From assembly GCA_964591955.1 (NCBI GenBank), contig CAZQBT010000005.1, positions 6,192 through 70,191 on the forward strand: 64,000 bases of DNA. The letters run 5' to 3'. Position 1 is the stretch's first letter, and each line of letters begins with the position of its first letter. Source of the DNA: an uncultured Brevinematales bacterium. Its GTDB lineage: Bacteria > Spirochaetota > Brevinematia > Brevinematales > CAZQBT01. The notes under the pieces were generated by a model. That model saw nothing but the letters and a program-made list of their open reading frames with translations, searched no databases and was not told where the DNA came from. Both the position numbers and the translations under genes were made by a program. Below are positions 21,541 to 64,000 of this stretch, in pieces.

Positions 21541-21543
21541 TAA

Positions 21544-22593: not shown

Positions 22594-22610
22594 AGCTTTT
22601 TCCCAAACAA

Positions 22611-22648
22611 AAATTAACAAAACAAAAGGCTAGGTAACTCCCAGCCTT
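22611..22648 (-). terminator. Rho-independent terminator after the downstream FlaA-like gene
   Basis: On the minus strand: AAGGCTGG-GAGTTA-CC(T)AGCCTT hairpin (22626-22648) followed by TTGTTTTGTTAATTTT. Confidence 0.5.
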
Positions 22649-23411: not shown

Positions 23412-23444
23412 AACAATCTCCTTATTACAAAATTTAATCTATAA

Positions 23445-49204: not shown

Positions 49205-49867
49205 TTAGTAAAAATGATTAGCCGCTTTAACCATCCTGTCCATAATAGACAAAGCCTTGTCTTTGTCGATAAATTTTGCGGTCTCATTCCATTTGATACC
49301 ATAGTCTTCTATAAAAAAATTGTCGCGTCCCTGAAATAATTCAATAAGCGCCGACTGCAACCTCGTGTCGGACAAAAAAACCTTTATCTGCTCTTTTTTC
49401 TTACCGCTTACGGAAATCAGTTTTTCCAAGATTGGATTATGCGGCACGTTTACAAAAAATTTCTTGAATAACTTTTTACCGAAATTTGTAAAAAAATCAG
49501 CCCTCTTTATTTTCATATCATAATCATACCTTTTTTTAAAAGGCAAAAAAATGTTCATTAACTCGACGGAATGATTAGAACCGCTTTTTTGGGTTGACCG
49601 ATAGATGTAAAAATCATAATCCTGATATTTGCCCGAAATAATACCTATAAACATCTGTGAAATCATTTTTTTCCAGAATGGAGTTTCAAGCAACTTTATA
49701 AAGCTGTGTATATCTTTTGCCCCTAAGTGCCTGCCTAAAATTATATAGCCAAGCGAATCGGCATTCCCGGTAAACGCCTCAACTCCCGGCTTAAACGTCA
49801 TACCTAATTCGGATGCAAGTCTCTGCCACGTTTGCACATCATCCTTTCTAATAAATATTCCTCTCAT
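49205..49867 (-). CDS. Hypothetical protein
   Basis: 220-aa ORF, Lys/Phe-rich. No family recognised. Confidence 0.4.
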   Translation of the reverse strand: MRGIFIRKDDVQTWQRLASELGMTFKPGVEAFTGNADSLGYIILGRHLGAKDIHSFIKLLETPFWKKMISQMFIGIISGKYQDYDFYIYRSTQKSGSNHSVELMNIFLPFKKRYDYDMKIKRADFFTNFGKKLFKKFFVNVPHNPILEKLISVSGKKKEQIKVFLSDTRLQSALIELFQGRDNFFIEDYGIKWNETAKFIDKDKALSIMDRMVKAANHFY

Positions 49868-49973
49868 ATCAATCCCCCTGTCTTTTAATAATTATAACAA
49901 AACGCGCGGGCAATATCAAATATCCTTCAGCTAAAAACGGAAAAAATTAATTTGAAAAAATCCGCCTTTAAAC

Positions 49974-50041
49974 TTGACAAAACCTGTCGGATTATATATT
50001 ATATACTATCAAGTCTATGGAGATAGTATTATATAGGAGGA
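49974..50041 (+). promoter_or_regulatory. Promoter, inverted-repeat operator and leader of the DsrE-like/TusA operon (copy 1 of a duplicated control region)
   Basis: TTGACA 49974-49979; -10 TATTAT 49997-50002. Perfect 8-bp inverted repeat ATACTATC (50003-50010) / GATAGTAT (50022-50029). AGGAGGAG RBS; ATG 50045. 63 of 77 nt are identical to 52925-53001 (hand alignment, no gaps). Confidence 0.55.
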
Positions 50042-50044
50042 GAT

Positions 50045-50524
50045 ATGAACGGGAAAAAATTATCAATAATAGCTTTCAGCGGGGATTTCGATAAAGCAAT
50101 CGCCGCGTTCACATTGGCAACAGGCGCAGCCGCGGTCGGCTATGAGGTCAATCTCTTTTTTACTTTTTGGGGTTTCAACATAATCAAGCGTAAAAAGGGG
50201 AGAAGGTTTACAGGCAAGGGATTTATGGCGAGGATGTTTAACTTCCTTATGGGCGGATTTCGCAACCTCCCTCTAAGCAGGTTGAATTTCGTGGGAGCAA
50301 GCCCCCGCCTTATGACAGGCCTTATGAAAAAACGCAACGTCGCTACATTAAAAGAGCTTGTATCATCGGCTGTCCAACTCGGCGTAAATTTCTACGCCTG
50401 TGAGATGTCTATGGTGATACTCGGATTAAAACTTGAGGATTTAATCCCGGAAATAAAACCAGACATTCTCGGTGTCGCAAAGTTTCTTGAGATTTCCGAC
50501 GGAGGCGAGACCTTATTTATCTAA
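50045..50524 (+). CDS. DsrE/DsrF/DrsH-like (DrsE_2) family protein
   Basis: KKLSIIAFSGDFDKAIAAFTLATGAAAVGYEVNLFFTFWGFNIIKRKK...NFYACEMS... matches my recollection of the DrsE_2 family, including the conserved Cys in ACEMS. Confidence 0.7.
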   Translation: MNGKKLSIIAFSGDFDKAIAAFTLATGAAAVGYEVNLFFTFWGFNIIKRKKGRRFTGKGFMARMFNFLMGGFRNLPLSRLNFVGASPRLMTGLMKKRNVATLKELVSSAVQLGVNFYACEMSMVILGLKLEDLIPEIKPDILGVAKFLEISDGGETLFI

Positions 50525-50537
50525 AACGGAGGACACT

Positions 50538-50762
50538 ATGAAACAATACAAATTGGATATAACATCGGAACACTGCCCGATGACTTTTGTCAAAACGAGA
50601 ATCGAATTGGATAAATTGCAGGACGGCGACCGCCTTGAGGTTATCCTGCGCGAGGGTGAACCGTTGGATAATGTCCCTAAAGCGGCTAAAGAACAGGGTT
50701 ATCGCGTGTTGAAGGTATATCATATAGATAAGGACATACACGGCATCCTGATAGAAAAGTAG
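50538..50762 (+). CDS. TusA/SirA-like sulfurtransferase
   Basis: 74 aa. MKQYKLDITSEHCPMTFVKTRIELDKLQDGDRLEVILREGEPLDNVPKAAKEQGYRV carries the active-site CP-x-P/T motif and the TusA fold pattern. GGAGG 6 nt upstream of ATG 50538. Confidence 0.85.
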   Translation: MKQYKLDITSEHCPMTFVKTRIELDKLQDGDRLEVILREGEPLDNVPKAAKEQGYRVLKVYHIDKDIHGILIEK

Positions 50763-50867
50763 TATCAAGCAATCGGCTGTTTAATTTTATATTGCGGAAT
50801 GGGGAAATGCCGTAATTCTACGATATTCACAGGCAACAACCCTTCCCGTCAATCACGCAAAATACCG

Positions 50868-50903
50868 GCGGGGCGCTCTTAAAAATTAGCTTCAGCGCCC
50901 CGC
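50868..50903 (+). terminator. GC-rich hairpin after the DsrE-like/TusA operon
   Basis: GCGGGGCGCT (50868-50877) pairs with AGCGCCCCGC (50894-50903): 10-bp stem, 16-nt loop. No clear U-tract. Confidence 0.45.
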
Positions 50904-50949
50904 TCTCCTCTAAAAAATCAAACCCTATTTAAAAAAAATTCATTCATAC

Positions 50950-50978
50950 TTGACTTGTAGGATTAAATATGATAGAAT
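50950..50978 (+). promoter_or_regulatory. Sigma-70-type promoter of the porin / FMN-binding protein genes
   Basis: TTGACT (50950-50955), 17-nt spacer, TAGAAT (50973-50978). AGGAGG RBS; ATG 51022. Confidence 0.45.
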
Positions 50979-51021
50979 AGACTAACTTTATTTGTTTAGA
51001 CTAAAAAACAGGAGGTCATAT

Positions 51022-52161
51022 ATGCAGAAGCATATTATTTTTTGGTTCGCGCTGGCTCTAATGACGGCAAGTTTTGTCCCGTTATCGGCGCAAAGTTCGG
51101 ATAATATCGGGCTTGAGGATGAGGATTTCGCCTATTCTTCATCTCAAGGCGTTCATCTCGGCGGTTACGGTGAACTTCACTATAACTACAAATCAACCGA
51201 AACCGGAGAGGTATCTTCGGTTTTCGATTTCCACCGTTTCGTGATTTTTTTCGGCTACACTTTTAATGAACAGTGGTCGATGTTTTCCGAAATTGAGATT
51301 GAGCATAATTTTGTGCAGGACGGTCAGGGTTATCTTGCCTTGGAGCAGGCTTATCTCGCATACCAGCCGTTTGACTGGATGGGTTTTCAGGTCGGCGTTC
51401 TTTTGCCGAGTGTCGGGATAATAAACGAAACTCACGAACCCCCTACTTTCCTGTCGGTCGAACGCCCTATCTACTCAAGAAACATTATCCCAACCACATG
51501 GTATGGTAACGGCGTAAGTGTTTACGGTAACATTTCGGGACTACAATACCGTCTTGTTGCTATGGAGGGATTGGACGGGTCTAAATTCAACAAGCAGACC
51601 GGTATCCGCTCCGGACGGGGAAGAGGATTCTATCACTTTGATAATGCAAAATACCTTTTGTATAATCTCGCCCTGGACTATACCGGTATCAGCGGTTTGC
51701 GTATCGGCGGCTCGGCTACATATAATAACTCATTAGTAGAAACGGACGGGATTAACGATATTAATAATCCCATACTCCTGCTTGAATCACATATCCAATT
51801 CAAGTTTAGGGGGCTTATTACAACCTTTGAGTTCGGACACATAAGCTACGGCAACCCCGATGTTTTGGATTTGCAAGCCTCTTTCGGCTATTATCTTGAG
51901 GCGGGATATAATATAGGTTATCTTTTCGGATGGCGCGCACAGCTAATCCCGTTTGTCAGATGGAGTCATATCGACACCGCTTGGAAAACTTACAGCGGAA
52001 CGGACGAAGGACAAAAAAGACTGAAACTTATGGGAGGTATCAGCTTCTTGCCTATAGAAAATATTTCTCTAAAAATTGATTTCGCAAACGAAATAAAAGG
52101 CTCGTCCCCGAATACTTCCCAAACTTTCCTTTTGAATATCGGTATGGGTTATATGATTTAA
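51022..52161 (+). CDS. Outer-membrane porin-like beta-barrel protein
   Basis: Signal peptide MQKHIIFWFALALMTASFVPLSAQ. GGYGELHYNY...FDFHRFVIFFGYTF...FSEIEIEH... plus alternating beta-strand pattern, as in OprO/P-like or uncharacterised anion porins. Start set to ATG 51022 (the track start is a TTG). Confidence 0.5.
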   Translation: MQKHIIFWFALALMTASFVPLSAQSSDNIGLEDEDFAYSSSQGVHLGGYGELHYNYKSTETGEVSSVFDFHRFVIFFGYTFNEQWSMFSEIEIEHNFVQDGQGYLALEQAYLAYQPFDWMGFQVGVLLPSVGIINETHEPPTFLSVERPIYSRNIIPTTWYGNGVSVYGNISGLQYRLVAMEGLDGSKFNKQTGIRSGRGRGFYHFDNAKYLLYNLALDYTGISGLRIGGSATYNNSLVETDGINDINNPILLLESHIQFKFRGLITTFEFGHISYGNPDVLDLQASFGYYLEAGYNIGYLFGWRAQLIPFVRWSHIDTAWKTYSGTDEGQKRLKLMGGISFLPIENISLKIDFANEIKGSSPNTSQTFLLNIGMGYMI

Positions 52162-52190
52162 CCCGTTTTGACACCGTTATTTCCTCCGAT

Positions 52191-52233
52191 GTAACCGCAC
52201 TACCCGCTTTTAACGGCGAAAAGGTGCGGTTAC
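52191..52233 (+). other. 10-bp perfect stem-loop in the porin / FMN-binding intergenic region
   Basis: GTAACCGCAC (52191-52200) pairs with GTGCGGTTAC (52224-52233); 23-nt loop. Not followed by a U-tract. Confidence 0.35.
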
Positions 52234-52282
52234 AAACGGAGTATTTATGAAGTCTCAAATTTATAATTTACGGAGAATAACT

Positions 52283-52813
52283 ATGAAAAGAATTTCCTTA
52301 GCAATAATGATAACCTGTTTTGCATCTGTTCCATCGTGGGCTTCCATAAACAGAGAAGCGAGAAAAGCGATAACCGAAAGCGTATCCGAAAACGCGGAGG
52401 TCGGTTTTAAAAAAACATATATCGGCGACGATTTAAAAACACTAATTGAAACAAAATCCCAATCAAGTTTCCTGCAAAACTATATATATTTCAGTCCGGT
52501 TACTTTGGATGGCGTTATAGTAAACTATGCGATAATCGACAGCGCAATGGAAAGAACCGCCCCGTTTACATTTCTTGTCCTGTTTACTCCCGACTTGAAA
52601 ATCCGAAACGTAACGGTAATCCGTTATATATCCCGCTACGGAAGCGGTATCCGCGATTCACGATGGCTTAAACAGTTTGAGGGCAAAACCGCCGGTTCGG
52701 GTTTTCGTCTTAACAGTAACATAGATTCCATTAGCGGCGCTACAATCTCCGCACGCTCAATCGCCGATGCATTGGAAAGACTCTCGCTTTTAATCCCGCA
52801 TCTGGTAAAATAA
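52283..52813 (+). CDS. Periplasmic FMN-binding domain protein (NqrC/RnfG/NosR-type FMN_bind)
   Basis: Signal peptide MKRISLAIMITCFASVPSWA. C-terminal ...WLKQFEGKT...NIDSISGATISARSI contains the S-G-A-T motif whose Thr is the flavinylation site in this domain family. Confidence 0.7.
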   Translation: MKRISLAIMITCFASVPSWASINREARKAITESVSENAEVGFKKTYIGDDLKTLIETKSQSSFLQNYIYFSPVTLDGVIVNYAIIDSAMERTAPFTFLVLFTPDLKIRNVTVIRYISRYGSGIRDSRWLKQFEGKTAGSGFRLNSNIDSISGATISARSIADALERLSLLIPHLVK

Positions 52814-52927
52814 AATTTGCCTGTATAATTTTTTCCTCAATCCGTTATATGCAATATTCCCGTTTTCTATACGCTTATCCAAAATATATTCAGCTTGATT
52901 TTTTTTTTCAAAAGCACAACTTAAAAC

Positions 52928-52995
52928 TTGACAAAAACTATCTGATTATGTATAATATACTATCAATACTACGGTAATAATAGTATTTAGGAGGA
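52928..52995 (+). promoter_or_regulatory. Promoter, inverted repeat and leader of the ThiS-MetY operon (copy 2 of the duplicated control region)
   Basis: TTGACA 52928-52933, 17-nt spacer, TATAAT 52951-52956. ATACTATC 52957-52964, with its partial complement ATAGTAT at 52980-52986. AGGAGGAG RBS; ATG 52999. The distance from -35 to ATG is the same as in copy 1 (71 nt). Confidence 0.55.
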
Positions 52996-52998
52996 GTT

Positions 52999-54441
52999 AT
53001 GAATATTAAAATCAACGGAAAAATCGAGCCTATCCCGCAAGATAGTATCACTGTATCGGAACTTTTAGAACTCAAGCAGGTTAAATATCCCGATATGGTT
53101 TCGGTTCAGCTTAACGGTGAGTTTGTAGAAAGAATCCTGTTCGATAAAACGACGGTTAATGAGGATGATGAGTTTGAGTTCCTGTATTTTATGGGGGGAG
53201 GGTCACAAGGATGGGATTTTGCAACCCGCGCTATCCATTCCTGCCCGCCAATCGAATCGACAAATAACCCGACTGTCCCTCCGATATATCAAAGTGCGGC
53301 TTTCAGCTACGACACAGCCGAAGAAATAGAAACGGTATTTGACGGCAGGGGCTTCGGTTATATCTACTCCCGTATCTCCAACCCAACGGTTACCGCATTT
53401 GAGTATAAAATCAACTCGCTTGAAAACGGTGTCGGAACGGTCGCCGCCGCTTCGGGTATGTCGGCAATCCTTAATTCCATACTTGCACTTGCCGGCAGCG
53501 GGGAGGAGATTATCGCAAGCAAAAGTTTGTTCAGCGGAACGCGCTCGCTTTTCGACGAGGTTTTAAGCAAGCTCGGTATCAAGGTCATATACGCCGATAT
53601 TAACGATACCGCTACCCTCCAATCTCTCATAACCGATAAAACCCGTCTCGTTTTTTGCGAGACAATCGGAAACCCTCTTTTGGACATAACGGATTTTTTA
53701 AAACTTGCGGATTTGGCGCATAAACACCGTATCCCTCTTATAGCCGACAGCACACTCACAACCCCATATCTTTTCAAGGCAAAGGATTTCGGGGTTGATA
53801 TAGTAGTCCATTCGGCGACCAAATATCTTACCGGCAACGGGACCGCCGTTGGCGGGGTAATAACCGATTTAGGCAATTTTGACTGGAATAATTCCCTCTC
53901 AGGCGATATCCGCGATAATGCTAAAAATTTCGGGCAATTCGCGTTTTTGTCCGTTCTTCGTAAAAAAATCCTGCAAAACACGGGAGGGGTTCTTTCACCC
54001 TTTAACGCATTTCTTCATAACCTCGGCGTTGAAACTCTATCTCTCAGGATGGAACGGCATTGCACAAACGCTTCGGAGTTAGCTCTCTATTTAAGCAATC
54101 ACAAAAAAGTTAAAAAAATTACCTACCCCGGCTTGAATAAAAATCCTTACTACGCACTCGCAAAAAATCAATTTAGCGGAAAATTCGGGGCGCTTTTGAA
54201 TTTCTCGCTTGAAAGCAGGGAGGATTGCTTCAAGTTTATATCCCGCTTAAAAATGACCAAAAATCTCGCCAACCTCGGCGACTCAAAAACTATGGTTATA
54301 CATCCCGCCTCAACCCTGTTTTCATCACTACCGAAAGAACATCGCCTCTCAATAGGCATAACCGATGAGATGATTCGGGTATCCATAGGAATTGAGGCAA
54401 TCAGAGACATTATTGAAGATTTTGAAAACGCTTTAAGCTAA
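52999..54441 (+). CDS. Fusion protein: ThiS/MoaD-like sulfur-carrier domain (aa 1-68, ends FMGGG) plus O-acetylhomoserine sulfhydrylase-type PLP enzyme (MetY-like)
   Basis: N-terminus MNIKINGKIEPIPQDSITVSELLELKQVKYPDMVSVQLNGEFVERILFDKTTVNEDDEFEFLYFMGGG aligns by eye with ThiS (…ING…TV.ELL…V.LNGE.V.R…L.D.D..E…GG). The rest is ATRAIHS...YSRISNPT...VVHSATKYLTGNG (PLP Lys)...GDSKTMVIHPASTLFS, the Cys/Met-metabolism PLP family. Confidence 0.8.
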   Translation: MNIKINGKIEPIPQDSITVSELLELKQVKYPDMVSVQLNGEFVERILFDKTTVNEDDEFEFLYFMGGGSQGWDFATRAIHSCPPIESTNNPTVPPIYQSAAFSYDTAEEIETVFDGRGFGYIYSRISNPTVTAFEYKINSLENGVGTVAAASGMSAILNSILALAGSGEEIIASKSLFSGTRSLFDEVLSKLGIKVIYADINDTATLQSLITDKTRLVFCETIGNPLLDITDFLKLADLAHKHRIPLIADSTLTTPYLFKAKDFGVDIVVHSATKYLTGNGTAVGGVITDLGNFDWNNSLSGDIRDNAKNFGQFAFLSVLRKKILQNTGGVLSPFNAFLHNLGVETLSLRMERHCTNASELALYLSNHKKVKKITYPGLNKNPYYALAKNQFSGKFGALLNFSLESREDCFKFISRLKMTKNLANLGDSKTMVIHPASTLFSSLPKEHRLSIGITDEMIRVSIGIEAIRDIIEDFENALS

Positions 54442-54451
54442 GGAGGATTTT

Positions 54452-55255
54452 ATGGAATTAAACGATAAGCAAATAGAACGTTACAGCCGCAATATTATAT
54501 TAAAGGAAGTCGGCGGGAAAGGGCAAACAAAACTTTTAGAATCGAAGGTGCTTGTTATCGGTGCCGGAGGGTTAGGCGCGCCGGCTTCTTTATACCTTGC
54601 CGCTTCGGGTGTGGGAACTATCGGTATTGCCGACGGAGATGCCGTTGATATTACCAATCTTCAACGCCAGATTATCCATTTCACACCGGATATCGGCAAG
54701 CCTAAGGTAACTTCCGCTAAAGAAAAAATTATCGCGCTTAACCCCGATGTAAATGTCATTACCTATAATGACAGGATAACCGCCGACAATATCGCATCGG
54801 TAATACAAGACTACGATTTTATTATCGATGCTACCGACAACTTCCCGACAAAGTTTCTTATTAACGATGCCTGTGTGCTTAACAAAAAGGCGTTTTCTCA
54901 CGGCGGAATACTTCGCTTTGACGGGCAAACGCTAACCCATACGCCGGGCAATGCATGTTACCGATGCGTATTCGACAGTCCGCCTCCTAAAGGGCTTGTG
55001 CCTACTTGTAGTCAGGCGGGAATTCTCGGCGCGGTAGCGGGAATTCTCGGTTCAATACAGGCGGCGGAAGCGCTTAAATTTATACTCGGCACGGGGGACT
55101 TATTAATCAACAGGCTTCTTGTGATGAACGCACTTGATATGAGCTTTAGAACCGTTGATTTAAAACGAAACCCCAAGTGTAAAATATGCGGAAATTCGCC
55201 TGAAATTACGGAATTAACCGATTACGAAGAACCATCCTGCGATTTAAGGAGGTAG
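54452..55255 (+). CDS. ThiF/MoeB/HesA-type adenylyltransferase (E1-like), no rhodanese domain
   Basis: RYSRNIILKEVGGKGQTKLLESKVLVIGAGGLGAPASLYLAASGVG...DNFPTKFLINDAC..., with CYRC and CKIC as a Zn-binding pair. Confidence 0.88.
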   Translation: MELNDKQIERYSRNIILKEVGGKGQTKLLESKVLVIGAGGLGAPASLYLAASGVGTIGIADGDAVDITNLQRQIIHFTPDIGKPKVTSAKEKIIALNPDVNVITYNDRITADNIASVIQDYDFIIDATDNFPTKFLINDACVLNKKAFSHGGILRFDGQTLTHTPGNACYRCVFDSPPPKGLVPTCSQAGILGAVAGILGSIQAAEALKFILGTGDLLINRLLVMNALDMSFRTVDLKRNPKCKICGNSPEITELTDYEEPSCDLRR

Positions 55256-55257
55256 CC

Positions 55258-55650
55258 GTGATAAAAATCAAAAAAGAGATTGTAGAAGCTATACATAAAC
55301 AGGGAAAAAACGAACTCCCAAATGAAGCCTGCGGTTATCTCGCCGCAAAAGACGGGGTAATAGTAAAAGCCTTTCCTATGACTAACGCCGATAAAAGTCC
55401 CGAACATTTTTCCTTTATTCCAAAGGAGCAGTTCGACGTTGTCAGGAAGGCAAGGGAGGAAGGCTTGGAGATGATTGCGATATATCATACCCATCCCGCT
55501 ACCCCGGCGCGGATGTCAAACGAGGATATCCGTCTTGCTTACGACACAAACACTCTCTATGTGATATACTCGCTGAAGGATAATGATATAAAATGTTTCA
55601 GCACGGACGGAGATAAAAAGATAAAAACAATCGATTTGGAGGTGATTTAA
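55258..55650 (+). CDS. JAMM/MPN+ metallopeptidase (Mec+/HcyD-like)
   Basis: NEACGYL (catalytic Glu) and HTHPATPARMSNED, which equals H-x-H-x7-S-x2-D. GTG start 2 nt after the E1 stop, with an AAGGAGG RBS. Confidence 0.88.
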   Translation: MIKIKKEIVEAIHKQGKNELPNEACGYLAAKDGVIVKAFPMTNADKSPEHFSFIPKEQFDVVRKAREEGLEMIAIYHTHPATPARMSNEDIRLAYDTNTLYVIYSLKDNDIKCFSTDGDKKIKTIDLEVI

Positions 55651-55651
55651 G

Positions 55652-57859
55652 ATGAGTATATTCAGATTGCCCGACAGCTTAGATAAAGATATAGCGGAAT
55701 ACGCAAGACTGGTTAAAGGCTATCTAAACGGAACAATCGACAAGGCACAACTCAAGGCTTTTCGCGTTCCTATGGGTATATACGAACAACGCGAAAACGA
55801 AAAGTATATGATGAGGTTTGTTATCCCCGGCGGTGATTTATCACCTATGCAATTATACGCCTTGGCGGAGATTGCTAAAAAATATTCGCCGTCAGACCTG
55901 CATATTACCACCAGAGGCGATATGCAATTACACGGAATAAATCTGCCCGACACTATTGTTATTATCAAAAAGCTGCGGACTATCGGATTAACGACACGCG
56001 GCGGAGGCGGCAATACCGTCAGAAATATTCTTATAGACTACCTTTCGGGATTAGACCCCGAAGAGGCTTTTGATGTCGCGCCTTATGCTCAGGAATTGGC
56101 AAGCAGGTTGATAAGCGAACCGGATTCGTTTACTCTCCCGCGAAAATTCAAGATAGCATTTTCAAGCAGTCCCGAGGACAGGGGCAAGGCTACGGTAAAC
56201 GACCTCGGATTTATTGCCGAAACCGATAAAAACGGCAACCGAGGGTTTAAGGTTTATATCGGCGGAGGGATGGGGTTAAAACCGCGCACGGGGATAGTCC
56301 TGTTTGATTTTGCGCCGGATACCGAGGTGTATAATATCGCAAAAGCCGCAAAAGACTTTTTCAATAAATACGGAAACCGTAAAAACAAACACGCCGCAAG
56401 GTTAAGATTTGTCTTATCCAAGCTCGGCGAAAATGATTTTCTTTCCAAATTCAGCGAGGAATACGAACGGGTCAAGGCTTTGAGTTTCCCGCCTTTTGAT
56501 ATTAAACCGGTGGAAACGCCCGGTGATTACGGTTATATATTAATACCGTTATTCTTAGGCGACATTTCCCCCGAATCCGCGGAGAATATTGCCGAAATCG
56601 CTATGCAGTTTGAAACCGCATCAATACGTTTAACATCACAACAAAACCTTATTATCAAAGGTATCCCGAATGAGAGTATTAAAGATATAAGAGAGCAAAT
56701 TCCGAATACGGGTATCCCCGGGCAATTCCCGTCGTTTATAGGCAACGCCGTTGCCTGTGCGGGAGCAAGCACCTGCCGTTTGGGAATATGTCTTTCGCGC
56801 AACCTTTTATCCGCTATTAAGGATATAACAAGCGAAAAAGCCTACCCCAATACGGATGATTTATCGCTCAAAATTTCGGGATGTCCTAACACCTGCGGAC
56901 AGCATATAATCGCCGATATAGGATTTTTCGGCAGGGGAGTGCGTTTCGGGAAAAGCAACGCAATCGCCCCGGCTTATAACGTGGTATTGGGCGGTCATCT
57001 CGGAAACGGGGTTTCCTCGCTTGCCGAAAATATCGGGGTTATTGCCGCTAAAAAAATCCCCGAATTTATGGGCGAGGTTTTGGGTTTTATCGGTCAAAAC
57101 CGTCTGACGGATGAGGCTTTTAGTGAGTTCATCAAGCGCGTTGGAAAAAATGAATTTACCAAAATATTGGATAAATACGGCGAAATCCCCGACATTGAGG
57201 AAAACAAGGACTATTACTATGACTGGGGCGATGATAAACCGTTTTCTATCTCCGAGAGGCTTGAGGGTGAATGTTCGGCGGGGTTGTTTGACCTTATCGA
57301 AACCGACCTGAAAACGGCTAAGGACAAACTGACGTCAAATCTTCCACGCGAGGCGCTGTATTACTCGCTTCGCGCCCTGTTAATCACCCGAGGAATAGTG
57401 CCGGGTAGTGAAAGCGAAACGGTCTCCGGGTTTAACAAATTTTTCTTAGGCAAATATATAGAACAGTCTTACGAGACGCTTATTAAAAAATTTGTCGATA
57501 GCGGGGAAATCCGCGTTAATGAAGCCGAAGATTTTTACAACCGCATAGAATGGCTATACGAACAAATGGATAACAGCCTCAAGTTTCCCGAATTAGCCCA
57601 TAACGAGGATAAAACAGATAACGCAACCGAACCAAAAGAGAATATCAAGGATTTTCGGGAAATACCGTGTCCGATGAATTTCGTTAAAGCAAAGATGGCG
57701 CTTGAAAATATCGAAATAGGCGAAAGGTTGGAAATTTATATTGATGACGGAGAGCCGATTGACAACGTCCCTCCTTCGTTACGAAACGAGGGGCATAGTA
57801 TTGTATCGCAGAAGCGAATCGGCGATTACTGGTCGATTGTAGTCGAAAGGAGGGTTTGA
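55652..57859 (+). CDS. Assimilatory-type siroheme-[4Fe-4S] sulfite reductase with C-terminal TusA-like domain
   Basis: Two NIR/SIR half-domains (…HITTRGDMQLHGI…, …IRLTSQQNLIIKGIP…). Cluster/siroheme Cys motifs are CAGASTC (C-x5-C) and CPNTC (C-x3-C). The last 72 aa, NIKDFREIPCPMNFVKAKMALENIEIGERLEIYIDDGEPIDNVPPSLRNEGHSIV..., form a TusA fold with a CP motif. Confidence 0.8.
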   Translation: MSIFRLPDSLDKDIAEYARLVKGYLNGTIDKAQLKAFRVPMGIYEQRENEKYMMRFVIPGGDLSPMQLYALAEIAKKYSPSDLHITTRGDMQLHGINLPDTIVIIKKLRTIGLTTRGGGGNTVRNILIDYLSGLDPEEAFDVAPYAQELASRLISEPDSFTLPRKFKIAFSSSPEDRGKATVNDLGFIAETDKNGNRGFKVYIGGGMGLKPRTGIVLFDFAPDTEVYNIAKAAKDFFNKYGNRKNKHAARLRFVLSKLGENDFLSKFSEEYERVKALSFPPFDIKPVETPGDYGYILIPLFLGDISPESAENIAEIAMQFETASIRLTSQQNLIIKGIPNESIKDIREQIPNTGIPGQFPSFIGNAVACAGASTCRLGICLSRNLLSAIKDITSEKAYPNTDDLSLKISGCPNTCGQHIIADIGFFGRGVRFGKSNAIAPAYNVVLGGHLGNGVSSLAENIGVIAAKKIPEFMGEVLGFIGQNRLTDEAFSEFIKRVGKNEFTKILDKYGEIPDIEENKDYYYDWGDDKPFSISERLEGECSAGLFDLIETDLKTAKDKLTSNLPREALYYSLRALLITRGIVPGSESETVSGFNKFFLGKYIEQSYETLIKKFVDSGEIRVNEAEDFYNRIEWLYEQMDNSLKFPELAHNEDKTDNATEPKENIKDFREIPCPMNFVKAKMALENIEIGERLEIYIDDGEPIDNVPPSLRNEGHSIVSQKRIGDYWSIVVERRV

Positions 57860-58314
57860 TGGCATATCCCGTATTGCTTGATATACAAAACCGCGAATGC
57901 CTTGTGGTCGGAGCGGGAAAAATCGCTTTAAAGAAAACCAAAGAACTGTTAAAGAACAAGGCGCGGGTTTTTGTTGTCGCAAAAGAGATTATGCCTGAAT
58001 TTTATGCACTTGCACGGTATCAAAATATTACCGTAAAAACCGAGTCTTTTGCACCCGACTATATTAACGGGAAATTCCTCGTTATCGCCGCTACCGATAA
58101 TCCCGCACTCAATGAATATATCTGCCGTGAGGCTTCGCTAAGGAACGTGTTGTCGAACAGCGTTTCGGGAAGGAAATACGCATCCTTTATGAACACGGCG
58201 TATTTTGGAAATAAAGATATTTTAGTCGCGGTATCATCATCCGGAAAAAATCCCAGCAAAAGCCTGAAACTGAAAAATCTGATTAAAGAATATATCGCGC
58301 AAATTCAAGGTTAA
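57859..58314 (+). CDS. Precorrin-2 dehydrogenase / sirohydrochlorin ferrochelatase (SirC/CysG N-terminal domain type)
   Basis: YPVLLDIQNRECLVVGAGKIALKKTKELL...VIAATDNPALN... is the Rossmann motif and layout of the siroheme synthase N-domain. TGATG overlap with the sulfite reductase stop. Confidence 0.7.
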   Translation: MAYPVLLDIQNRECLVVGAGKIALKKTKELLKNKARVFVVAKEIMPEFYALARYQNITVKTESFAPDYINGKFLVIAATDNPALNEYICREASLRNVLSNSVSGRKYASFMNTAYFGNKDILVAVSSSGKNPSKSLKLKNLIKEYIAQIQG

Positions 58315-58326
58315 AAGGAGATTTTT

Positions 58327-59391
58327 ATGGGTTTTCTGCTTGTCGGTTTTTCGCATAACAACTGCCCGCTTGATATAATGGAGAAAATACATATTACACC
58401 GAAAGAGCTAAGCGGCTTCTATAATGGTTTGCCGTTTAAAAGCAAGTTTTATCTCCAGACGTGTAACCGTCGCGAATTAATTGTGGACAGCGACAATCCG
58501 GTTGAGGCGGGAAATATTATCAAAGATATTATATCCGAACGGTTTAAGCTATCCCCGAAAGAAACGGAAATCCATTCCCGAATGTATATGGGCAAACAAG
58601 CGGTCAAGCATCTTTTCGGCGTTGCAACGGGGCTTAAATCCGCCGTTACCGGGGAAAAGCAAATTCTCAGCCAGATGAGGACATCATATAACGAGGCAAA
58701 AAGTATCGGGGCGCTCAGGGGTAGTCTTGACGGAGTAATACAATGGGCGCTTTTTACGGGAAAAAAAGCTCACAGGATAATGCCCGATTCCCGCTACCCC
58801 GAATCAATCGCCGAAACCGCATTGGATTTTGCCGTAAAGCATCACGGTTTATTATCTAAAAGAATTATGCTGATAGGCGCGGGGGAAACGATATACCGTA
58901 TAGCAACGGGGATAAAAAATATCAATAGCGGACTTGTTTTTGTTGCAAATCGGAATATAGATAAAGCCCGCGAACTTGCCCGCAAGACCGATAGTAAAGC
59001 TATACCGCTTTCCGATATCGGGCGGGTTATAAACGAGGTAGATATTATTTTCAGCGCGACCTCCGCGCCTCATTATATTTTGCGAAAGGAATTGCTTGCT
59101 AAAATAGACAGCCCCGTTACAATATTCGACTTGGCAATCCCCCGCGATATTGAAAGCACGGAAAATCCTCTTATAAAAGTAATGGATATTTCGGCGCTGA
59201 AAAAATATTTCAGCCTGAACTACGGTAACAGGCTTTATGAATACAAAAAGCTAAAAAAAATCGTTGATTTGGAAGTATCAAGGTGGAATTATGATTATCA
59301 GGTTAGGAACACGAAAAAGCGCTTTGGCGTTAAAACAAACGGAAGAGGCAATCCCGATTTTGAAGGAAGCTCTTGCCTCGGCGAAGTTTGA
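58327..59391 (+). CDS. hemA: Glutamyl-tRNA reductase
   Basis: LLVGFSHNNCPLDIMEKI..., the active-site YLQTCNRRE, and the NADPH-binding MLIGAGETIYRIA. It is short (354 aa), and its last 101 nt overlap the next gene in another frame. Confidence 0.85.
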   Translation: MGFLLVGFSHNNCPLDIMEKIHITPKELSGFYNGLPFKSKFYLQTCNRRELIVDSDNPVEAGNIIKDIISERFKLSPKETEIHSRMYMGKQAVKHLFGVATGLKSAVTGEKQILSQMRTSYNEAKSIGALRGSLDGVIQWALFTGKKAHRIMPDSRYPESIAETALDFAVKHHGLLSKRIMLIGAGETIYRIATGIKNINSGLVFVANRNIDKARELARKTDSKAIPLSDIGRVINEVDIIFSATSAPHYILRKELLAKIDSPVTIFDLAIPRDIESTENPLIKVMDISALKKYFSLNYGNRLYEYKKLKKIVDLEVSRWNYDYQVRNTKKRFGVKTNGRGNPDFEGSSCLGEV

Positions 59392-61321
59392 TATTATCGG
59401 TATCGACACAAGCGGCGACTTGGATAAAATATCAAGTATCAGTCAAACGGAGGGAAGCGACTTCTTTACCGATAACATAGACTCCGCGCTTTTAAACAAA
59501 ACAATAGATATTGCACTACACAGCGCCAAAGACCTCCCCGATGAATTCCCTGAAGGGATAACTGTCGCCGCTATCACCGACGGCATAGATAAACGGGACG
59601 TTCTTGTCGTAAGGCGGGACTTGGTTGATTTCCTGAAGGATAAAGATATACCAAAGAGTTTTTCAATCGCGACAAGCAGTAAGCGAAGAAAAAAGCAGAT
59701 AAGCCAATATTTCCCCGATGCCGTAATAAAAGATATTCGCGGTAATATAGAGGAAAGACTCTCGCTGTTGGATAACGGATACGCGGACGGTCTTGTAATA
59801 GCCGCGGCGGGGCTTATCAGGCTCGGACTTGAAAAACGTATATTCAAATACCTCCCGTTTACAGTCCATCCGTTACAGGGTAAACTCGCATTTTGTATCC
59901 GTGAAGACGACCTGAGCCTTAAAACCGCGCTTGAAAAGATTGATACGCGAAAGAAATGGGGAAAGGCATATCTTGTGGGAGGGGGGCCGGGCGACCCGGA
60001 ACTTATCACGGTTAAAGCCCACCGTATCCTTGAAACCGCCGATATTGTTCTTTACGATGCTCTTGTGAGCGCGGAAGTATTAAACATCATACCTAAATCC
60101 GTTACAAAAATAGAATGCGGTAAACGCAAAGGCAATCACAGCGCTTCACAGGAAGAAATTAATAATCTGATTTTCACTTATATAGAGAAAGGAAAAACCA
60201 TTGCGCGCCTGAAAGGAGGCGACCCGCTTATATTTGCAAGAGGGGGCGAGGAGATTGAATTCTTAAAAAGAAATTTTGCCGATTACGACATAGTCCCCGG
60301 CATAAGCGCAGTGCAAGGCGTATCCGCATATTGCGAAATTCCCTTAACGCGACGGGGAGTCTCCTCCTCACTGCTTCTACTGACAGGACATCCGATAGAA
60401 AGCCTTGAAGCGCCGACCCCTGATTTCGCGGGAACTATCGCTATATATATGGGTGCAACGCAAACTAAAAAAATAGCATCCCTGTTCTTTCAAAAGGGAT
60501 GGTTACCCGATACACCCGTAATTGCAGTCTCAAACGCATCGCTGTATAATCAGGAAAAACGTTATATGAAATTAATCGACTTGGCATCGTCTCAGGAAAA
60601 AATCAAAACCCCCGCCCTGCTTATTATCGGCAAGGTCGCGGAATACGGGAAAACCAAAAGCCGTTTTGAGCACAAAAAGAAAGTCCTGTTTACAGGCACC
60701 TCCCCCGATAAATACCGCGACTACGGCGAACCGGTTATCCGACCGATGATAGAACTTGCTCCGCTTGACGATAAATCAAACCTTCACAAGGCTATCCGAA
60801 ATATCAATGGATACGACGCGATAGTTTTTACATCAAAGCACGCCGTCCGGTTTTTCTTTGAGGCGTTGTATTCTTCGGAAAAGGACGCAAGGTCGCTTTC
60901 CGAGTTGCAGGTTTATTCTATCGGGAGAGTTACATCGGGAGAACTGAAAAATTACGGTATCATTCCCGACGGACAACCCGTTTTTGAAAGCGCCGAGGGC
61001 TTGATTGAATATTTTATCAAGCATAAAATCAGGAACAAAAAAATAATAATCCCGCGTTCAAATCTCGCGCACCCGGAGCTTCCCGAAGGTTTGCGAAAAA
61101 TCGGAAATTCGGTTGACACGGTGGATACATATAAAAACGTTGCCCCATCGGAAAGCCCGAACATTGACTTTGATTTTATCGATACGGTAATTTTTACATC
61201 GCCGTCCGGGGTAAAGAATTTCAAAAAGATATACAAAAACCGTTTAAAACCCGGTACCGAAATCATAACTACCGGAAAAATTACGCAACAAGAGGTGGAG
61301 AATGAAAAGATTAAGACCTGA
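59291..61321 (+). CDS. Triple fusion: porphobilinogen deaminase-like (domains 1-2 only), uroporphyrinogen-III C-methyltransferase, and uroporphyrinogen-III synthase
   Basis: aa 1-218 (HemC): IIRLGTRKSALALKQ, ALHSAKDLP, ATSSKRRKKQ, IRGNIEERL. aa 224-455 (TP_methylase/CobA): AYLVGGGPGDPELITVKA...RLKGGDPLIFARGGEE...VPGISA. aa 463-676 (HemD): ...AIVFTSKHAVRFF...VIFTSPSGVKNF. Start set to ATG 59291. Confidence 0.8.
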   Translation: MIIRLGTRKSALALKQTEEAIPILKEALASAKFDIIGIDTSGDLDKISSISQTEGSDFFTDNIDSALLNKTIDIALHSAKDLPDEFPEGITVAAITDGIDKRDVLVVRRDLVDFLKDKDIPKSFSIATSSKRRKKQISQYFPDAVIKDIRGNIEERLSLLDNGYADGLVIAAAGLIRLGLEKRIFKYLPFTVHPLQGKLAFCIREDDLSLKTALEKIDTRKKWGKAYLVGGGPGDPELITVKAHRILETADIVLYDALVSAEVLNIIPKSVTKIECGKRKGNHSASQEEINNLIFTYIEKGKTIARLKGGDPLIFARGGEEIEFLKRNFADYDIVPGISAVQGVSAYCEIPLTRRGVSSSLLLLTGHPIESLEAPTPDFAGTIAIYMGATQTKKIASLFFQKGWLPDTPVIAVSNASLYNQEKRYMKLIDLASSQEKIKTPALLIIGKVAEYGKTKSRFEHKKKVLFTGTSPDKYRDYGEPVIRPMIELAPLDDKSNLHKAIRNINGYDAIVFTSKHAVRFFFEALYSSEKDARSLSELQVYSIGRVTSGELKNYGIIPDGQPVFESAEGLIEYFIKHKIRNKKIIIPRSNLAHPELPEGLRKIGNSVDTVDTYKNVAPSESPNIDFDFIDTVIFTSPSGVKNFKKIYKNRLKPGTEIITTGKITQQEVENEKIKT

Positions 61322-62270
61322 TAGAAAAAACCAACAAACCCGCGATAAACACGCCGAAACCTCACTTAGTATCAAGGACTTTATTTACCCGTATTTCGTA
61401 TGCGACACCCCCGAATTGGAAAAATCCATAGACGGGTTTGATAATATGAAGGTTCATTCAATCGACGGTTTGCTTAAAGATATGGAAGACACCGCCGCTC
61501 TCGGCATAGACAGGATTTTGCTATTCGGCGTTATCCCTCACTCCCATAAAGACGAAATCGGAAGTGCGGGCTTGAGAGAAGATAGCCTTATAGCAAAAGC
61601 AATAAGAAAGATAAAGCCCGCCTTTCCGAATATAACGGTTATAGCCGATGTCTGTCTCTGCGGATACTCCTCGCACGGACACTGCGGAATAGTTAAAGGC
61701 AGCGAGGTATTAAACGATGCCACTCTGCCGTATCTTGCTAAAATGTCATCGGTCTTTGCGGGGGCCGGCGCCGATATAGTCGCGCCCTCGTCAATGATGG
61801 ACGGGCAGGTTGCGGCAATACGCGATGAACTCAACAAACGGGGACTCGCTAAAACAAAGATTTTGGGTTACTCCGCAAAATACGTATCAAATCTATACTC
61901 CCCGTTTCGCAACGCCTCGTCATCATCGCCTTCATTCGGAGACAGAAAAACCTACCAGATGGACTTCCGCAACCGAAGCGAGGCTATGGAAGAAATCCGT
62001 GCGGATATTGAAGAGGGGGCGGATATGGTGATGGTTAAACCCTCGCTATTCTACCTTGATACGATTTATCAGGCTAAAACCGAATTTCCCGATATTCCGC
62101 TGGTCGCTTATCAGGTATCGGGGGAATATATGATGCTCAAAGAGGCATCGAAAAACGGTGTTTTTAACGAAACCGAAATTTTTAAAGAGGCGCTTATATC
62201 CGTAAAACGAGCCGGCGCAGATATGATTATTTCATATTACGCGAAGGAGGCTTGCAGATGGCTAAGATAA
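61302..62270 (+). CDS. hemB: Porphobilinogen synthase (delta-aminolevulinate dehydratase), Zn-type
   Basis: MKRLRP...FIYPYFV...; the Cys-rich Zn site DVCLCGYSSHGHCG; ...MVKPSLFYLD... (active-site Lys); ...AYQVSGEY... Confidence 0.9.
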   Translation: MKRLRPDRKNQQTRDKHAETSLSIKDFIYPYFVCDTPELEKSIDGFDNMKVHSIDGLLKDMEDTAALGIDRILLFGVIPHSHKDEIGSAGLREDSLIAKAIRKIKPAFPNITVIADVCLCGYSSHGHCGIVKGSEVLNDATLPYLAKMSSVFAGAGADIVAPSSMMDGQVAAIRDELNKRGLAKTKILGYSAKYVSNLYSPFRNASSSSPSFGDRKTYQMDFRNRSEAMEEIRADIEEGADMVMVKPSLFYLDTIYQAKTEFPDIPLVAYQVSGEYMMLKEASKNGVFNETEIFKEALISVKRAGADMIISYYAKEACRWLR

Positions 62271-63520
62271 ACCGCTCGATTGAGGCTTTTAAAGAAGCCC
62301 GTAAGGTGATAAGCGGAGGAGTCAACAGCCCCGTCCGTTCGTTTAAGGCGGTGGGCGGAAATCCCGTTTTTATACAATCGGGCAAGGGAAGCAAAATACG
62401 GGATTTGGACAATAACGTATATACCGACTTCTGTATGTCGTGGGGCGCTTTGATATTGGGGCATTGCGACAGGTTTGTAATACGGAAGGTTAAGAAGGCA
62501 ATATCCAAGGGGACAAGTTTCGGATGTCCTACGGAGACGGAAACCGAACTTGCAAAAATAATTTGCGATGCAATCCGTTCTATCGACAGGATTCGATTTG
62601 TAAATTCGGGGACGGAAGCCGTTATGAGCGCAATCCGTCTTGCCCGCGGATTTACCTCAAAAAACGGAATACTTAAATTCGACGGATGCTACCACGGGCA
62701 TAGCGACTCATTATTGGTAAACGCGGGTTCGGGCGTATCAGGAATCGCCAACTCATCAAGCAAAGGAATCCCCGGCGAGTTCGTTAAAAACACAATATCA
62801 ATCCCGTTCAACAACACGGAGATTTTAGAAAAAACCATAGAGGAGCATCATTCAAACCTCGCCTGCGTTATAACGGAGGTAGTTCCCGCAAATATGGGAC
62901 TTGTTTTGCCCAAGCGCGAATTTCTTGAAACATTGAGAAAGCTCACCGAAAAATACGGGATAGTATTGATATTCGATGAGGTAGTAACGGGTTTTCGCCT
63001 GCAATACGGAGGAGCGCAGGATTATTTCAAAATCGCGCCGGATTTAACCTGTCTCGGCAAGATTATAGGGGGAGGATTTCCCGTGGGGGCTTTTGGAGGC
63101 AGAGAGGAGATTATGCAAAACCTCGCGCCGACGGGAGACGTATATCAGGCGGGAACGTTGTCGGGTAATCCGGTAGCGATGAGCGCGGGTATTGCAACAC
63201 TCGCCAAGTTAAAAAGCGGGCAAATCTATAATAAACTGAACGCCCTCGGCGCGAAAATCGAAAAAAGACTTAGCCCTAAACTGAATTTAAAGCGTCTCTG
63301 CTCTATGTTTACGGTGTTTTTCACAGACAAAACCGTAAAGAATTACGATACGGCAAAAACTTCCGACACTTCGGAGTTTGCACGATGGTTTAACTATATG
63401 CTTGATAACGGCATATATTTATCCCCCTCGCAGTTTGAAACGAATTTTATCTCGGCGGCTCATACGCCGGCGGATATGGAAAAGTTTATAAATTCAGCAG
63501 AGCGGTTTATTTCGCAATGA
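62258..63520 (+). CDS. hemL: Glutamate-1-semialdehyde 2,1-aminomutase
   Basis: ...ISGGVNSPVRSFKAVGG...DFCMSWGALILGH...FDEVVTGFR...DLTCLGKIIGGGFPVGAFGG (PLP Lys)...GTLSGNP. Start set to ATG 62258 (GGAGG 7 nt upstream). Confidence 0.92.
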   Translation: MAKINRSIEAFKEARKVISGGVNSPVRSFKAVGGNPVFIQSGKGSKIRDLDNNVYTDFCMSWGALILGHCDRFVIRKVKKAISKGTSFGCPTETETELAKIICDAIRSIDRIRFVNSGTEAVMSAIRLARGFTSKNGILKFDGCYHGHSDSLLVNAGSGVSGIANSSSKGIPGEFVKNTISIPFNNTEILEKTIEEHHSNLACVITEVVPANMGLVLPKREFLETLRKLTEKYGIVLIFDEVVTGFRLQYGGAQDYFKIAPDLTCLGKIIGGGFPVGAFGGREEIMQNLAPTGDVYQAGTLSGNPVAMSAGIATLAKLKSGQIYNKLNALGAKIEKRLSPKLNLKRLCSMFTVFFTDKTVKNYDTAKTSDTSEFARWFNYMLDNGIYLSPSQFETNFISAAHTPADMEKFINSAERFISQ

Positions 63521-63540
63521 AAAAAATTTCGGCAAACCGC

Positions 63541-63569
63541 TTGACTTAATAATATAATTGTAGTATGAT
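63541..63569 (+). promoter_or_regulatory. Sigma-70-type promoter upstream of the last ORF
   Basis: TTGACT (63541-63546), 17-nt spacer, TATGAT (63564-63569). ATG 63588. Confidence 0.4.
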
Positions 63570-63587
63570 TATATAACGAGGAAAAAT

Positions 63588-63974
63588 ATGAATATAAAAA
63601 CCATCCTCAAAAAGGGCATGACTCTTGTTTTTATCTCAATAATTTCGATAAGTTTGACGGCGTTCCAAAAGATATGCTGCTGTAACACAATATCGCAATC
63701 CGATTTTACCGCAGTATCATCTCCCTCACCGTCTATCGTATCATCAAATCTTTGTCATAACCATCTCGAAAAAAGCGAGGGAATTTGTTTTAATCAGGCG
63801 GATGAAACAAAACCCGTTACGGTTTTAATCGCGGAAAATTCCGTAAATTTTATAGCCGATACTCCCCCCGTAAGTGATTTTACCTTCTCCCGAAAAGCCG
63901 ATACATTTATTAATCAACCTTCAATTCAAACAAAATTCCCAATTTTTCTTAAGCCGGTCATCCTCCGTTGTTAG
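63588..63974 (+). CDS. Small secreted/membrane-anchored hypothetical protein with a CCC motif
   Basis: 128 aa. N-terminal hydrophobic helix LVFISIISISLTAF, then KICCCNT, LCHNH and GICFNQ. No family recognised. Confidence 0.4.
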   Translation: MNIKTILKKGMTLVFISIISISLTAFQKICCCNTISQSDFTAVSSPSPSIVSSNLCHNHLEKSEGICFNQADETKPVTVLIAENSVNFIADTPPVSDFTFSRKADTFINQPSIQTKFPIFLKPVILRC

Positions 63975-64000
63975 ATTTGCCTTTGCTCCATTATCCTACT

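Follow-up and report, generated by a model that had tools for sequence, protein, structure and literature searches.

What a ubiquitin-like sulfur carrier is doing at the N-terminus of a metabolic enzyme is the question raised by a compact operon of an uncultured Brevinematales bacterium, found in the 64,000-nucleotide stretch of contig CAZQBT010000005.1 analysed here (the window, whose own numbering is used for all positions). The first gene of this operon encodes, in one polypeptide, a carrier domain of the ThiS type and MetY, a pyridoxal 5'-phosphate (PLP)-dependent O-acetylhomoserine (OAH) sulfhydrylase; it is followed by genes for an E1-type adenylyltransferase, a JAMM metallopeptidase and a sulfite reductase carrying a TusA domain. 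The locus is likely to be a protein-thiocarboxylate homocysteine operon of the type described in Wolinella, with the carrier making up the first 68 residues of a carrier-MetY polyprotein. The evidence for this reading consists of the identities of the domains and their motifs, the conservation of three glycines at the junction, the flexibility of that junction in a structural model and a neighbourhood conserved in distant relatives.

The four genes lie on the + strand, only 10, 2 and 1 nt apart, in full agreement with the initial annotation: the ThiS-MetY fusion gene (52999-54441, an open reading frame (ORF) of 480 aa), the E1 gene of ThiF/MoeB/HcyF type (54452-55255, 267 aa), the JAMM/MPN+ metallopeptidase gene of HcyD type (55258-55650, 130 aa) and the gene of a monomeric siroheme/[4Fe-4S] sulfite reductase-TusA protein of NirA/Sir type (55652-57859, 735 aa). 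All the motifs quoted for them are present in the translations, namely FMGGG, HSATKYLTG, GAGGLG, CYRC, CKIC, EACG, HTHPATPARMSNED, CAGASTC (C-x5-C) and CPNTC (C-x3-C), and every domain proposed for the four proteins scores above the gathering threshold of its Pfam model.

The carrier domain (residues 1-68; 52999..53202, + strand) is of the ThiS/HcyS beta-grasp type and ends in EFLYFMGGG. Pfam ThiS covers residues 3-68 with 38 bits against a cut-off of 22.5, and in the AlphaFold2 model residues 1-64, with elements in the order beta-beta-alpha-beta-beta-beta, have predicted local distance difference test (pLDDT) values of 85-90. The best Foldseek match of the model is 3cwi, a 'ThiS' of Geobacter metallireducens (E 6e-9, 49% identity, template modelling scores 0.77/0.89), followed by E. 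coli ThiS, B. subtilis ThiS, MoaD and ubiquitin. The proposal that the N-terminal 68 aa form a beta-grasp carrier, for which scoring and modelling had been named in advance as the check, is thus borne out by both. The carrier glycines are internal to the primary translation product, at the junction FMGGG/SQGW, and the segment around them (residues 65-104, comprising the GGG tail and the N-terminal arm of MetY) has pLDDT values of 30-50 in the model and is probably flexible. Of 31 fused homologues, at least 90% keep G66, G67 and G68, and the whole motif FLYFMGGG is near-invariant in 30 of these at 43-54% identity to the query, while the linkers between FLYFMGGG and MetY are 1-16 aa long and unconserved. 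The one fused homologue without GGG (P0067) lies on a contig that stops at the gene, so that its downstream genes are off the contig. Neither the 64-kb window nor the surroundings of the fused relatives yielded a second carrier ORF. A further match of residues 60-71, to the crystallised Wolinella MetY (3ri6), was rejected as an artefact, since the expression tag ENLYFQG of that protein aligns with EFLYFMGG. The resemblance between this tobacco etch virus protease-site tag and the carrier tail is one of chance, and could lead an automated annotation to report a fused carrier for the Wolinella structure.

The fusion is not an artefact of assembly or sequencing. The identical 480-aa protein is present on 14 contigs, three independent assemblies among them, and 31 of the best 120 database matches cover the whole query, 30 of them with the FLYFMGGG junction; the independent assemblies and the approximately 30 diverged homologues (43-54% identity) together rule such an error out. 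The union of a ThiS-type carrier with a MetY-type PLP enzyme, read initially from motifs, is therefore confirmed as Pfam ThiS and Cys_Met_Meta_PP in one ORF that is real across assemblies. In a rough neighbour-joining tree of the MetY domain, the 30 fused proteins fall into about nine patches among unfused ones, and the fusion seems to have arisen repeatedly, by repeated fusion or fission. When the carrier profile was run against a library clustered at 50% identity, 556 representatives matched at E <= 1e-10, and the best 150 of these are all 58-152 aa long, stand-alone carriers thus dominating. Because these 150 are all short, the fused state is, as judged from the profile search, the minority form; a library clustered in this way gives no count of full-length fusions, which probably sit there under unfused MetY representatives or only as fragments. 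A literature search found no paper describing a ThiS-MetY polyprotein.

The setting of the carrier is far more widespread than the fusion. A profile of carrier plus junction, scanned against species-representative genomes, gave at least 585 matching stretches for the FLYFMGGG subfamily, spanning Spirochaetes, Omnitrophota, Margulisbacteria, Desulfobacterota, Clostridia, Bacteroidota, Ignavibacteria, Planctomycetota, Acidobacteriota, Campylobacterales and others, and the highest carrier identity to the window among the matches listed is 63%. Neighbours were counted on the strand of the carrier in 80 loci from these genomes. An E1 gene stands beside the carrier in 72 of the 80, a JAMM gene in 71, MetY in 62 and a sulfite reductase in 41; TusA of the reductase type occurs in 49, and a DsrE2+TusA pair is inserted between E1 and JAMM in 15. 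The gene order is mostly that of the window, also in two Campylobacterales loci (L024 and L068) that have the same carrier subfamily and the same layout. The reductase-TusA fusion is the common form, present in 29 of the 80 loci and thus in 29 of the 41 that contain a reductase. Beside the fused MetY itself, conservation of the E1 and JAMM genes holds throughout: in all five other fused homologues examined (44-54% identity), ThiF, Prok-JAB and a TusA-bearing sulfite reductase come next. Three fused relatives have DsrE2 and TusA inserted between E1 and JAMM. Genes for phosphoadenosine phosphosulfate (PAPS) reductase, CysD, CysN/C, cysteine synthase, a second, unfused MetY and siroheme synthesis recur near the fused relatives.

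The MetY part (residues 69-480; 53203..54441, + strand) is joined to the carrier by a short linker and matches Cys_Met_Meta_PP over residues 76-479 with 388 bits. Its top NCBIfam match is TIGR01326, the OAH/O-acetylserine (OAS) sulfhydrylase subfamily, at 443 bits, below the cut-off of 495; among structures it matches 8sf5, 7kb0 and the W. succinogenes MetY 3ri6 (E 5e-99), and the PLP lysine K275 is invariant among the fused homologues. In the MetY of Thermotoga maritima, Arg270 restricts the second substrate to bisulfide (PMC8191291). At this position the window protein has Gln (LRKKILQNTGG), as has Wolinella MetY, and both are without the preceding PDPSYHG loop, while the second, unfused MetY paralogues of related operons retain the Arg and the loop. 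The Gln and the loss of the loop are a hint, at the level of sequence, that the window MetY is of the carrier-using type. The exchange of Arg270 for Gln was considered as a universal marker of thiocarboxylate-using MetY and rejected, as Gln is found in just half of the fused proteins. Such a second, unfused MetY of bisulfide type is often encoded in operons that have the fused carrier-MetY (L084, 5743-7035; L086, 5589-6884; L088, 12190-13485), which suggests that two parallel homocysteine routes may be encoded in one locus.

The other three proteins fit the same pathway in their domains. The E1 had been described as being without a rhodanese domain, and ThiF (268 bits) is indeed its sole Pfam domain, with GAGGLG, CYRC and CKIC in place; the MoeB and SAMP-activating E1 models of NCBIfam match at 331-345 bits, the matches to MoeZ/MoeB-rhodanese models end at model position about 260-270, and the closest structures are E. 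coli ThiF and MoeB (E about 1e-53). It keeps a cysteine in the PTCSQAG loop, the position that forms the acyl-disulfide in E. coli ThiF. The JAMM peptidase matches Prok-JAB at 77 bits with the E...H-T-H-x7-S-x2-D motif intact, as anticipated, and the NCBIfam desampylase model at 62 bits, below the cut-off of that model; its structural matches are 2kks (E 4e-24) and Pyrococcus JAMM1 (5lda). In the reductase, two NIR_SIR_ferr/NIR_SIR pairs and a C-terminal TusA domain (residues 667-733, window 57650-57850, 61 bits) agree with the assignment as a siroheme sulfite reductase with TusA. The protein matches plant nitrite reductase and M. tuberculosis NirA (1zj8, E 3e-39), and the NirA family is its top match in NCBIfam. 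The stretch ahead of TusA (window 57140-57670, residues ~497-673, about 150-170 aa) has no Pfam match at E <= 0.1, and the reductase-TusA proteins of relatives are similar in total length (735-795 aa). Both TusA copies of the window, the reductase-fused and the stand-alone one, have the conserved cysteine. Other arrangements of these modules occur among the relatives. In six of the 80 loci (L018, L024, L033, L045, L053 and L072) the reductase, whether it has TusA or not, carries JAMM at its N-terminus, and some relatives (L006, L026, L034, L067 and L089) have a one-module sulfite-reductase-like protein of ~290-310 aa and a separate small TusA instead of the 735-aa fusion, the one-module protein of L089 having ferredoxin-type Fe-S motifs.

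The gene set as a whole has a published precedent. Iyer, Burroughs & Aravind described in 2006, as class 4e, a neighbourhood of ThiS, JAB, E1, SirA, sulfite reductase and OAH sulfhydrylase, in which the E1 is without rhodanese and SirA/TusA is obligatory, and which occurs in Wolinella and Geobacter metallireducens among other species (PMC1779556). According to the passages that cite it in PMC5764234, PMC8191291 and PMC6225789, the Wolinella pathway was reconstituted as a protein-thiocarboxylate homocysteine route by Krishnamoorthy & Begley in 2011. The comparison drawn initially with HcyS, HcyF, HcyD, MetY and Sir of Wolinella stands, in that all five functions are present and MetY is closely matched by 3ri6. 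The window shares with the Wolinella system and class 4e the carrier, the rhodanese-less E1, the stand-alone JAB, the OAH sulfhydrylase, the siroheme reductase and a SirA/TusA element, and with Wolinella MetY also the Gln and the loop deletion. It differs in that the carrier is fused to MetY, and does not merely bear a tail of 1-15 residues; in that a full siroheme gene set in the same direction follows and no sulfate-activation genes are near; and perhaps in the fusion of TusA to the reductase, a form common in the family. The suggestion that the compact, fused layout is novel thus survives for the uncommon carrier-MetY fusion; the neighbourhood has been known since 2006, and neither the joining of TusA to the reductase nor the association with siroheme genes is new or rare. 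The carrier-MetY polyprotein is the sole unusual feature, an uncharacterised architectural variant of a known pathway.

Carriers fused to partners are known from other systems. MoaX of M. tuberculosis, a MoaD-MoaE fusion, needs a cut between Gly82 and Ser83 for its activity (PMC4326299); in D. radiodurans the JAMM protein DR0402 cleaves the MoaD-MoaE fusion DR2607, and linear SAMP fusions are cleaved by HvJAMM1 (PMC8832034). As in the window, the carrier forms the N-terminal part of MoaX and DR2607 and the enzyme that uses its thiocarboxylate comes after it, and the junction is a glycine pair followed by Ser (G82/S83 in MoaX, G68/S69 here). The need for a cut to expose the glycine, and the JAMM/MPN+ protein that makes this cut in Deinococcus, are likewise shared with what is proposed below. 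The two systems differ in belonging to the molybdopterin pathway with MoaE as acceptor, where the window has homocysteine and a PLP enzyme; moreover, their peptidase has no known second, product-releasing role, and cleavage in the window is a prediction. The CysO/MoeZ/Mec+/CysM route to cysteine, to which the operon had also been likened, follows the same logic, in which a PLP enzyme uses a carrier thiocarboxylate, an acyl shift ensues and a JAMM peptidase sets the amino acid free. This functional part of the analogy stands and the structural part does not: the CysO system has an E1 with rhodanese, a beta-family cysteine synthase, an unfused carrier and no sulfite reductase or TusA in the operon, and neither an E1-rhodanese fusion nor CysM is present here. 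The 2006 survey further lists fusions of ThiS to ThiG, of ThiS to the C-terminus of actinobacterial sulfite reductase and of a ubiquitin-like domain to ThiF (PMC1779556). Carriers of the ThiS family are thus often joined to pathway partners, in class 4e operons as well. In the actinobacterial reductase-ThiS protein, however, the carrier is C-terminal and its glycine end is free uncut, whereas the N-terminal carrier of the window would have to be released.

The tails of the unfused carriers indicate how such a fusion could arise. In the 80 loci, 70 carriers have a locatable motif, and 68 of these extend past GGG. The tail is 1-15 aa long in 66 (most often two residues), and just two carriers end exactly in GGG. 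Wolinella HcyS itself reportedly bears a single extra alanine and would likewise be a precursor in need of trimming, and the carrier of the Campylobacteraceae locus L068 ends in GGGA. Two further carriers read directly, without a stop codon, into the next gene: that of L021 (8181-8675, in a Bacteroidetes metagenome-assembled genome) into DsrE2, GGGQQKKLSLISFSGDFDK..., and that of L062 (7842-9026) into E1, GGGSMNLTESQIERYSRH.... The carrier of this subfamily thus fuses to whichever gene is downstream. In several split loci the stop codon of the carrier is in frame with MetY, whose ATG follows 0-2 codons later (in Rosettibacter the junction reads GGGS-stop-MEFETKAVH), and a single base change at such loci would be expected to yield the fused form. 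Programmed read-through or recoding at these in-frame junctions was considered and set aside, since each MetY has its own ATG 0-2 codons past the stop. Because almost all stand-alone carriers extend 1-15 aa past GGG, trimming of C-terminal tails by JAMM is, to all appearance, already obligatory in the subfamily. With disposable tails and obligatory trimming, the loss of a stop codon would therefore give a cleavable polyprotein and be tolerated, and the fusion is best seen as the extreme case of a subfamily rule of disposable C-terminal tails. By analogy, given the MoaD-MoaE precedents and the near-universal tails, the carrier-MetY fusion is mechanistically unsurprising.

A pathway can be proposed for the operon by homology with the Wolinella, MoaX and Deinococcus systems, on which the steps of cleavage, adenylation, thiocarboxylation, transfer and release are modelled. 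Transcription would start at a promoter-like site at 52928 and probably extend through hemL. The JAMM peptidase would cut the primary product after Gly68 (FMGGG/S), giving a 68-aa glycine-ended carrier and a 412-aa MetY; cleavage at the glycine would be needed because adenylation requires a free carboxylate. The rhodanese-less E1 would then adenylate Gly68, and sulfide, produced from sulfite by the siroheme reductase and handed over perhaps through the cysteine of the TusA domain, would attack the acyl-adenylate to give the carrier thiocarboxylate (carrier-COSH). MetY, with PLP on Lys275, would add this thiocarboxylate to the intermediate derived from OAH, an S-to-N acyl shift would give carrier-homocysteine, and JAMM would hydrolyse the amide, freeing homocysteine and recycling the carrier. 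The downstream genes would supply siroheme to the reductase.

The sulfur might instead reach the carrier as a persulfide, relayed by TusA (perhaps with the DsrE2/TusA pair) and not as free sulfide, with an acyl-disulfide being reduced to the thiocarboxylate and TusA replacing the rhodanese. This version is possible, if rather doubtful. It accounts for an E1 without rhodanese in a class of operons that TusA (SirA) accompanies, SirA having been predicted as a rhodanese substitute (PMC1779556). It also has in its favour that TusA and the reductase form one protein in the window and in 29 of the 80 loci, that DsrE2+TusA separates E1 from JAMM in 15 loci and three fused relatives, and that cysteines are present in both TusA copies and in the PTCSQAG loop. 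However, a siroheme reductase yields sulfide, not sulfane sulfur, and no oxidant that would make a TusA persulfide is evident; the Wolinella reconstitution is also said to have worked with sulfide, which counts against a relay. More speculative, and unlikely, is a zymogen-like precursor, in which MetY would be inactive until JAMM frees its N-terminal arm and TusA would pass sulfur to the E1-bound adenylate, so that sulfite would become homocysteine without free sulfide. If true, one protease would license the enzyme and recycle the carrier, and the polyprotein would be a bacterial counterpart of eukaryotic ubiquitin-fusion precursors, with post-translational control of methionine synthesis.

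Several points weigh against the Wolinella-type polyprotein reading itself. Its steps are predicted here from genes, as they are for any ThiS-MetY fusion, and the assignment to the HcyS/HcyF/HcyD type rests on the match of MetY to 3ri6, the 2006 description of the neighbourhood and the Campylobacterales loci L024 and L068. The window has no sulfate-activation genes from which the sulfite might come. Because MetY generally accepts free sulfide, which the reductase would make, the carrier may be facultative. P0067 indicates that at least one lineage can retain the N-terminal domain uncut, and Arg occupies the Arg270 position in 15 of 30 fused homologues. These last observations lead to the view that the ThiS domain is never released, being a docking or regulatory module or a decaying remnant, that MetY takes free sulfide, and that E1 and JAMM serve a carrier encoded elsewhere. 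The usual preference of MetY enzymes for bisulfide (PMC8191291), the domain without GGG in P0067 and the Arg said to enforce bisulfide specificity in half of the fused proteins agree with it. It is nevertheless decidedly improbable, given that the junction GGG is kept, in a flexible segment, in 30 of 31 fused proteins at 43-54% identity, that no other carrier gene lies near any fused operon, that E1 and JAMM adjoin in every fused operon seen and that tail trimming is already needed in 97% of stand-alone carriers. That the product is cysteine or another thiol, with the PLP enzyme acting on OAS or another activated substrate, is very improbable. The best NCBIfam model is of the OAH/OAS subfamily and is matched below its cut-off (443 against 495), the best structural match is annotated as an OAH/OAS sulfhydrylase and several related operons contain cysteine synthase (PALP) genes; yet the fold is that of the gamma family, the characterised thiocarboxylate-using relative 3ri6 makes homocysteine, and the cysteine synthases, where present, are separate genes, suggesting a division of labour. 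Hardly credible at all is a ubiquitin-like conjugation or anti-phage system, comparable to Cap2/Cap3 of the cyclic oligonucleotide-based antiphage signalling system (CBASS) or to Bil, and equally so an artefactual fusion. The E1 and JAMM proteins do match PADLOC E1-E2 and JAB models weakly (up to 61 and 23 bits), but the matches span the adenylation fold only, the MoeB-type models reach 345 bits and the context is all sulfur and siroheme metabolism; with no E2 domain, no effector and only partial PADLOC matches, the defence reading is effectively refuted.

Understood as a Wolinella-type operon with a polyprotein carrier, the locus opens no new kind of biology, and its use lies elsewhere. Pathway databases cover the thiocarboxylate route to homocysteine poorly (PMC5764234), and recognition of the carrier subfamily would improve predictions of methionine prototrophy in uncultured spirochetes, Omnitrophota, Margulisbacteria, Desulfobacterota and others. 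The fused form would be a clean natural substrate for studying how a prokaryotic JAMM protein recognises the ubiquitin-like fold and cuts a linear fusion. The tail statistics suggest a rule, with parallels in eukaryotic ubiquitin-fusion genes: because trimming would be obligatory, a carrier that reads through into whatever gene comes next (MetY, DsrE2 or E1) would be tolerated.

Expression of the operon can be considered from the region ahead of the fusion gene. Position 52928, given initially as the start of the operon, is not the start of a gene; it is the first base of a sigma-70-type promoter-like site (52928..52956, + strand, TTGACA-17 nt-TATAAT) that matches the consensus at 12 of 12 positions and is the sole such match within 49800-64000. 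Promoter-like sites in the region are in total not more numerous than in shuffled sequence, and the position of this one is suggestive only of an operon promoter. Between its -10 hexamer and the ribosome-binding site lies an imperfect palindrome (52957..52986), a candidate operator with arms ATACTATCAATAC and GTAATAATAGTAT of 13 nt (85% complementary, spacer 4 nt), and an AGGAGG ribosome-binding site comes after it, ahead of the fusion gene. A riboswitch or leader RNA upstream was looked for and rejected, with no Rfam match at E <= 0.1 in 48-64 kb. Rrf2 regulators are encoded upstream in five fused-relative loci; unlike in these relatives, none was seen adjoining the window operon. No convincing + strand terminator was found between the operon and hemL, and because none breaks the run of genes, a single transcript may extend from 52928 to about 63520, the end of hemL.

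The genes that follow the reductase encode tetrapyrrole synthesis, all on the + strand, with ends that overlap or nearly touch. A CysG N-terminal-type precorrin-2 dehydrogenase/sirohydrochlorin ferrochelatase (57856..58314; NAD_binding_7 85 bits, TIGR01470 cysG_Nterm 93 bits, cut-off 62) overlaps the reductase stop codon, and is followed by hemA (58327-59391, GlutR_N), a hemC-cobA-hemD fusion (59264/59360-61321, Porphobil_deam+TP_methylase+HEM4), hemB (61302-62270, ALAD) and hemL (62252-63520, Aminotran_3). The operon is thus directly followed by its own siroheme gene set, as had been noted; such a link is not new, since the same set stands behind the reductase in one fused relative and several other loci. 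The triple fusion of porphobilinogen deaminase, uroporphyrinogen-III C-methyltransferase and uroporphyrinogen-III synthase is also found in relatives L086 and L087.

A sulfur-relay pair formed by a DsrE2-like protein (50045-50524, + strand, DrsE_2 149 bits) and a stand-alone TusA (50538-50762, + strand, 69 bits) lies 2.2 kb upstream of the operon. It probably belongs with it in function, because the same pair stands between E1 and JAMM in the three fused relatives and 15 of the 80 loci already mentioned. Two proteins are encoded between the pair and the operon: one of 389 aa (50992-52161) with a signal-like N-terminus and no Pfam match, and one of 188 aa (52247-52813) with a weak FMN_bind (RnfG-like) domain. 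The absence of sulfate-activation genes and of cysteine synthase, pointed out initially, fits the results: scans of the window found none of the former, and no PALP gene lies in or beside the operon. Because PAPS reductase, CysD and CysN/C recur near the fused relatives, sulfate-activation genes are likely to be elsewhere in this genome. The thiamin genes thiG, thiH/thiO, thiC and thiE were not found among the window ORFs scanned, the neighbours of the carrier being MetY, E1, JAMM and the reductase. Elsewhere in the window, three large ORFs (3547-6525, 11184-13133 and 40728-42455; 992, 649 and 575 aa) have no significant Pfam match, and DUF1015 paralogues lie within 13 kb of each other (25500-26837 and 38295-39524). 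A bacterial WD40 beta-propeller protein of 358 aa is encoded beside a PilZ-domain protein and a TrkA/RCK potassium channel (19097-22620, - strand), and two adjacent genes for FlaA, the outer-layer protein of the flagellar filament that forms its periplasmic sheath, are a spirochete mark (22689-24254).

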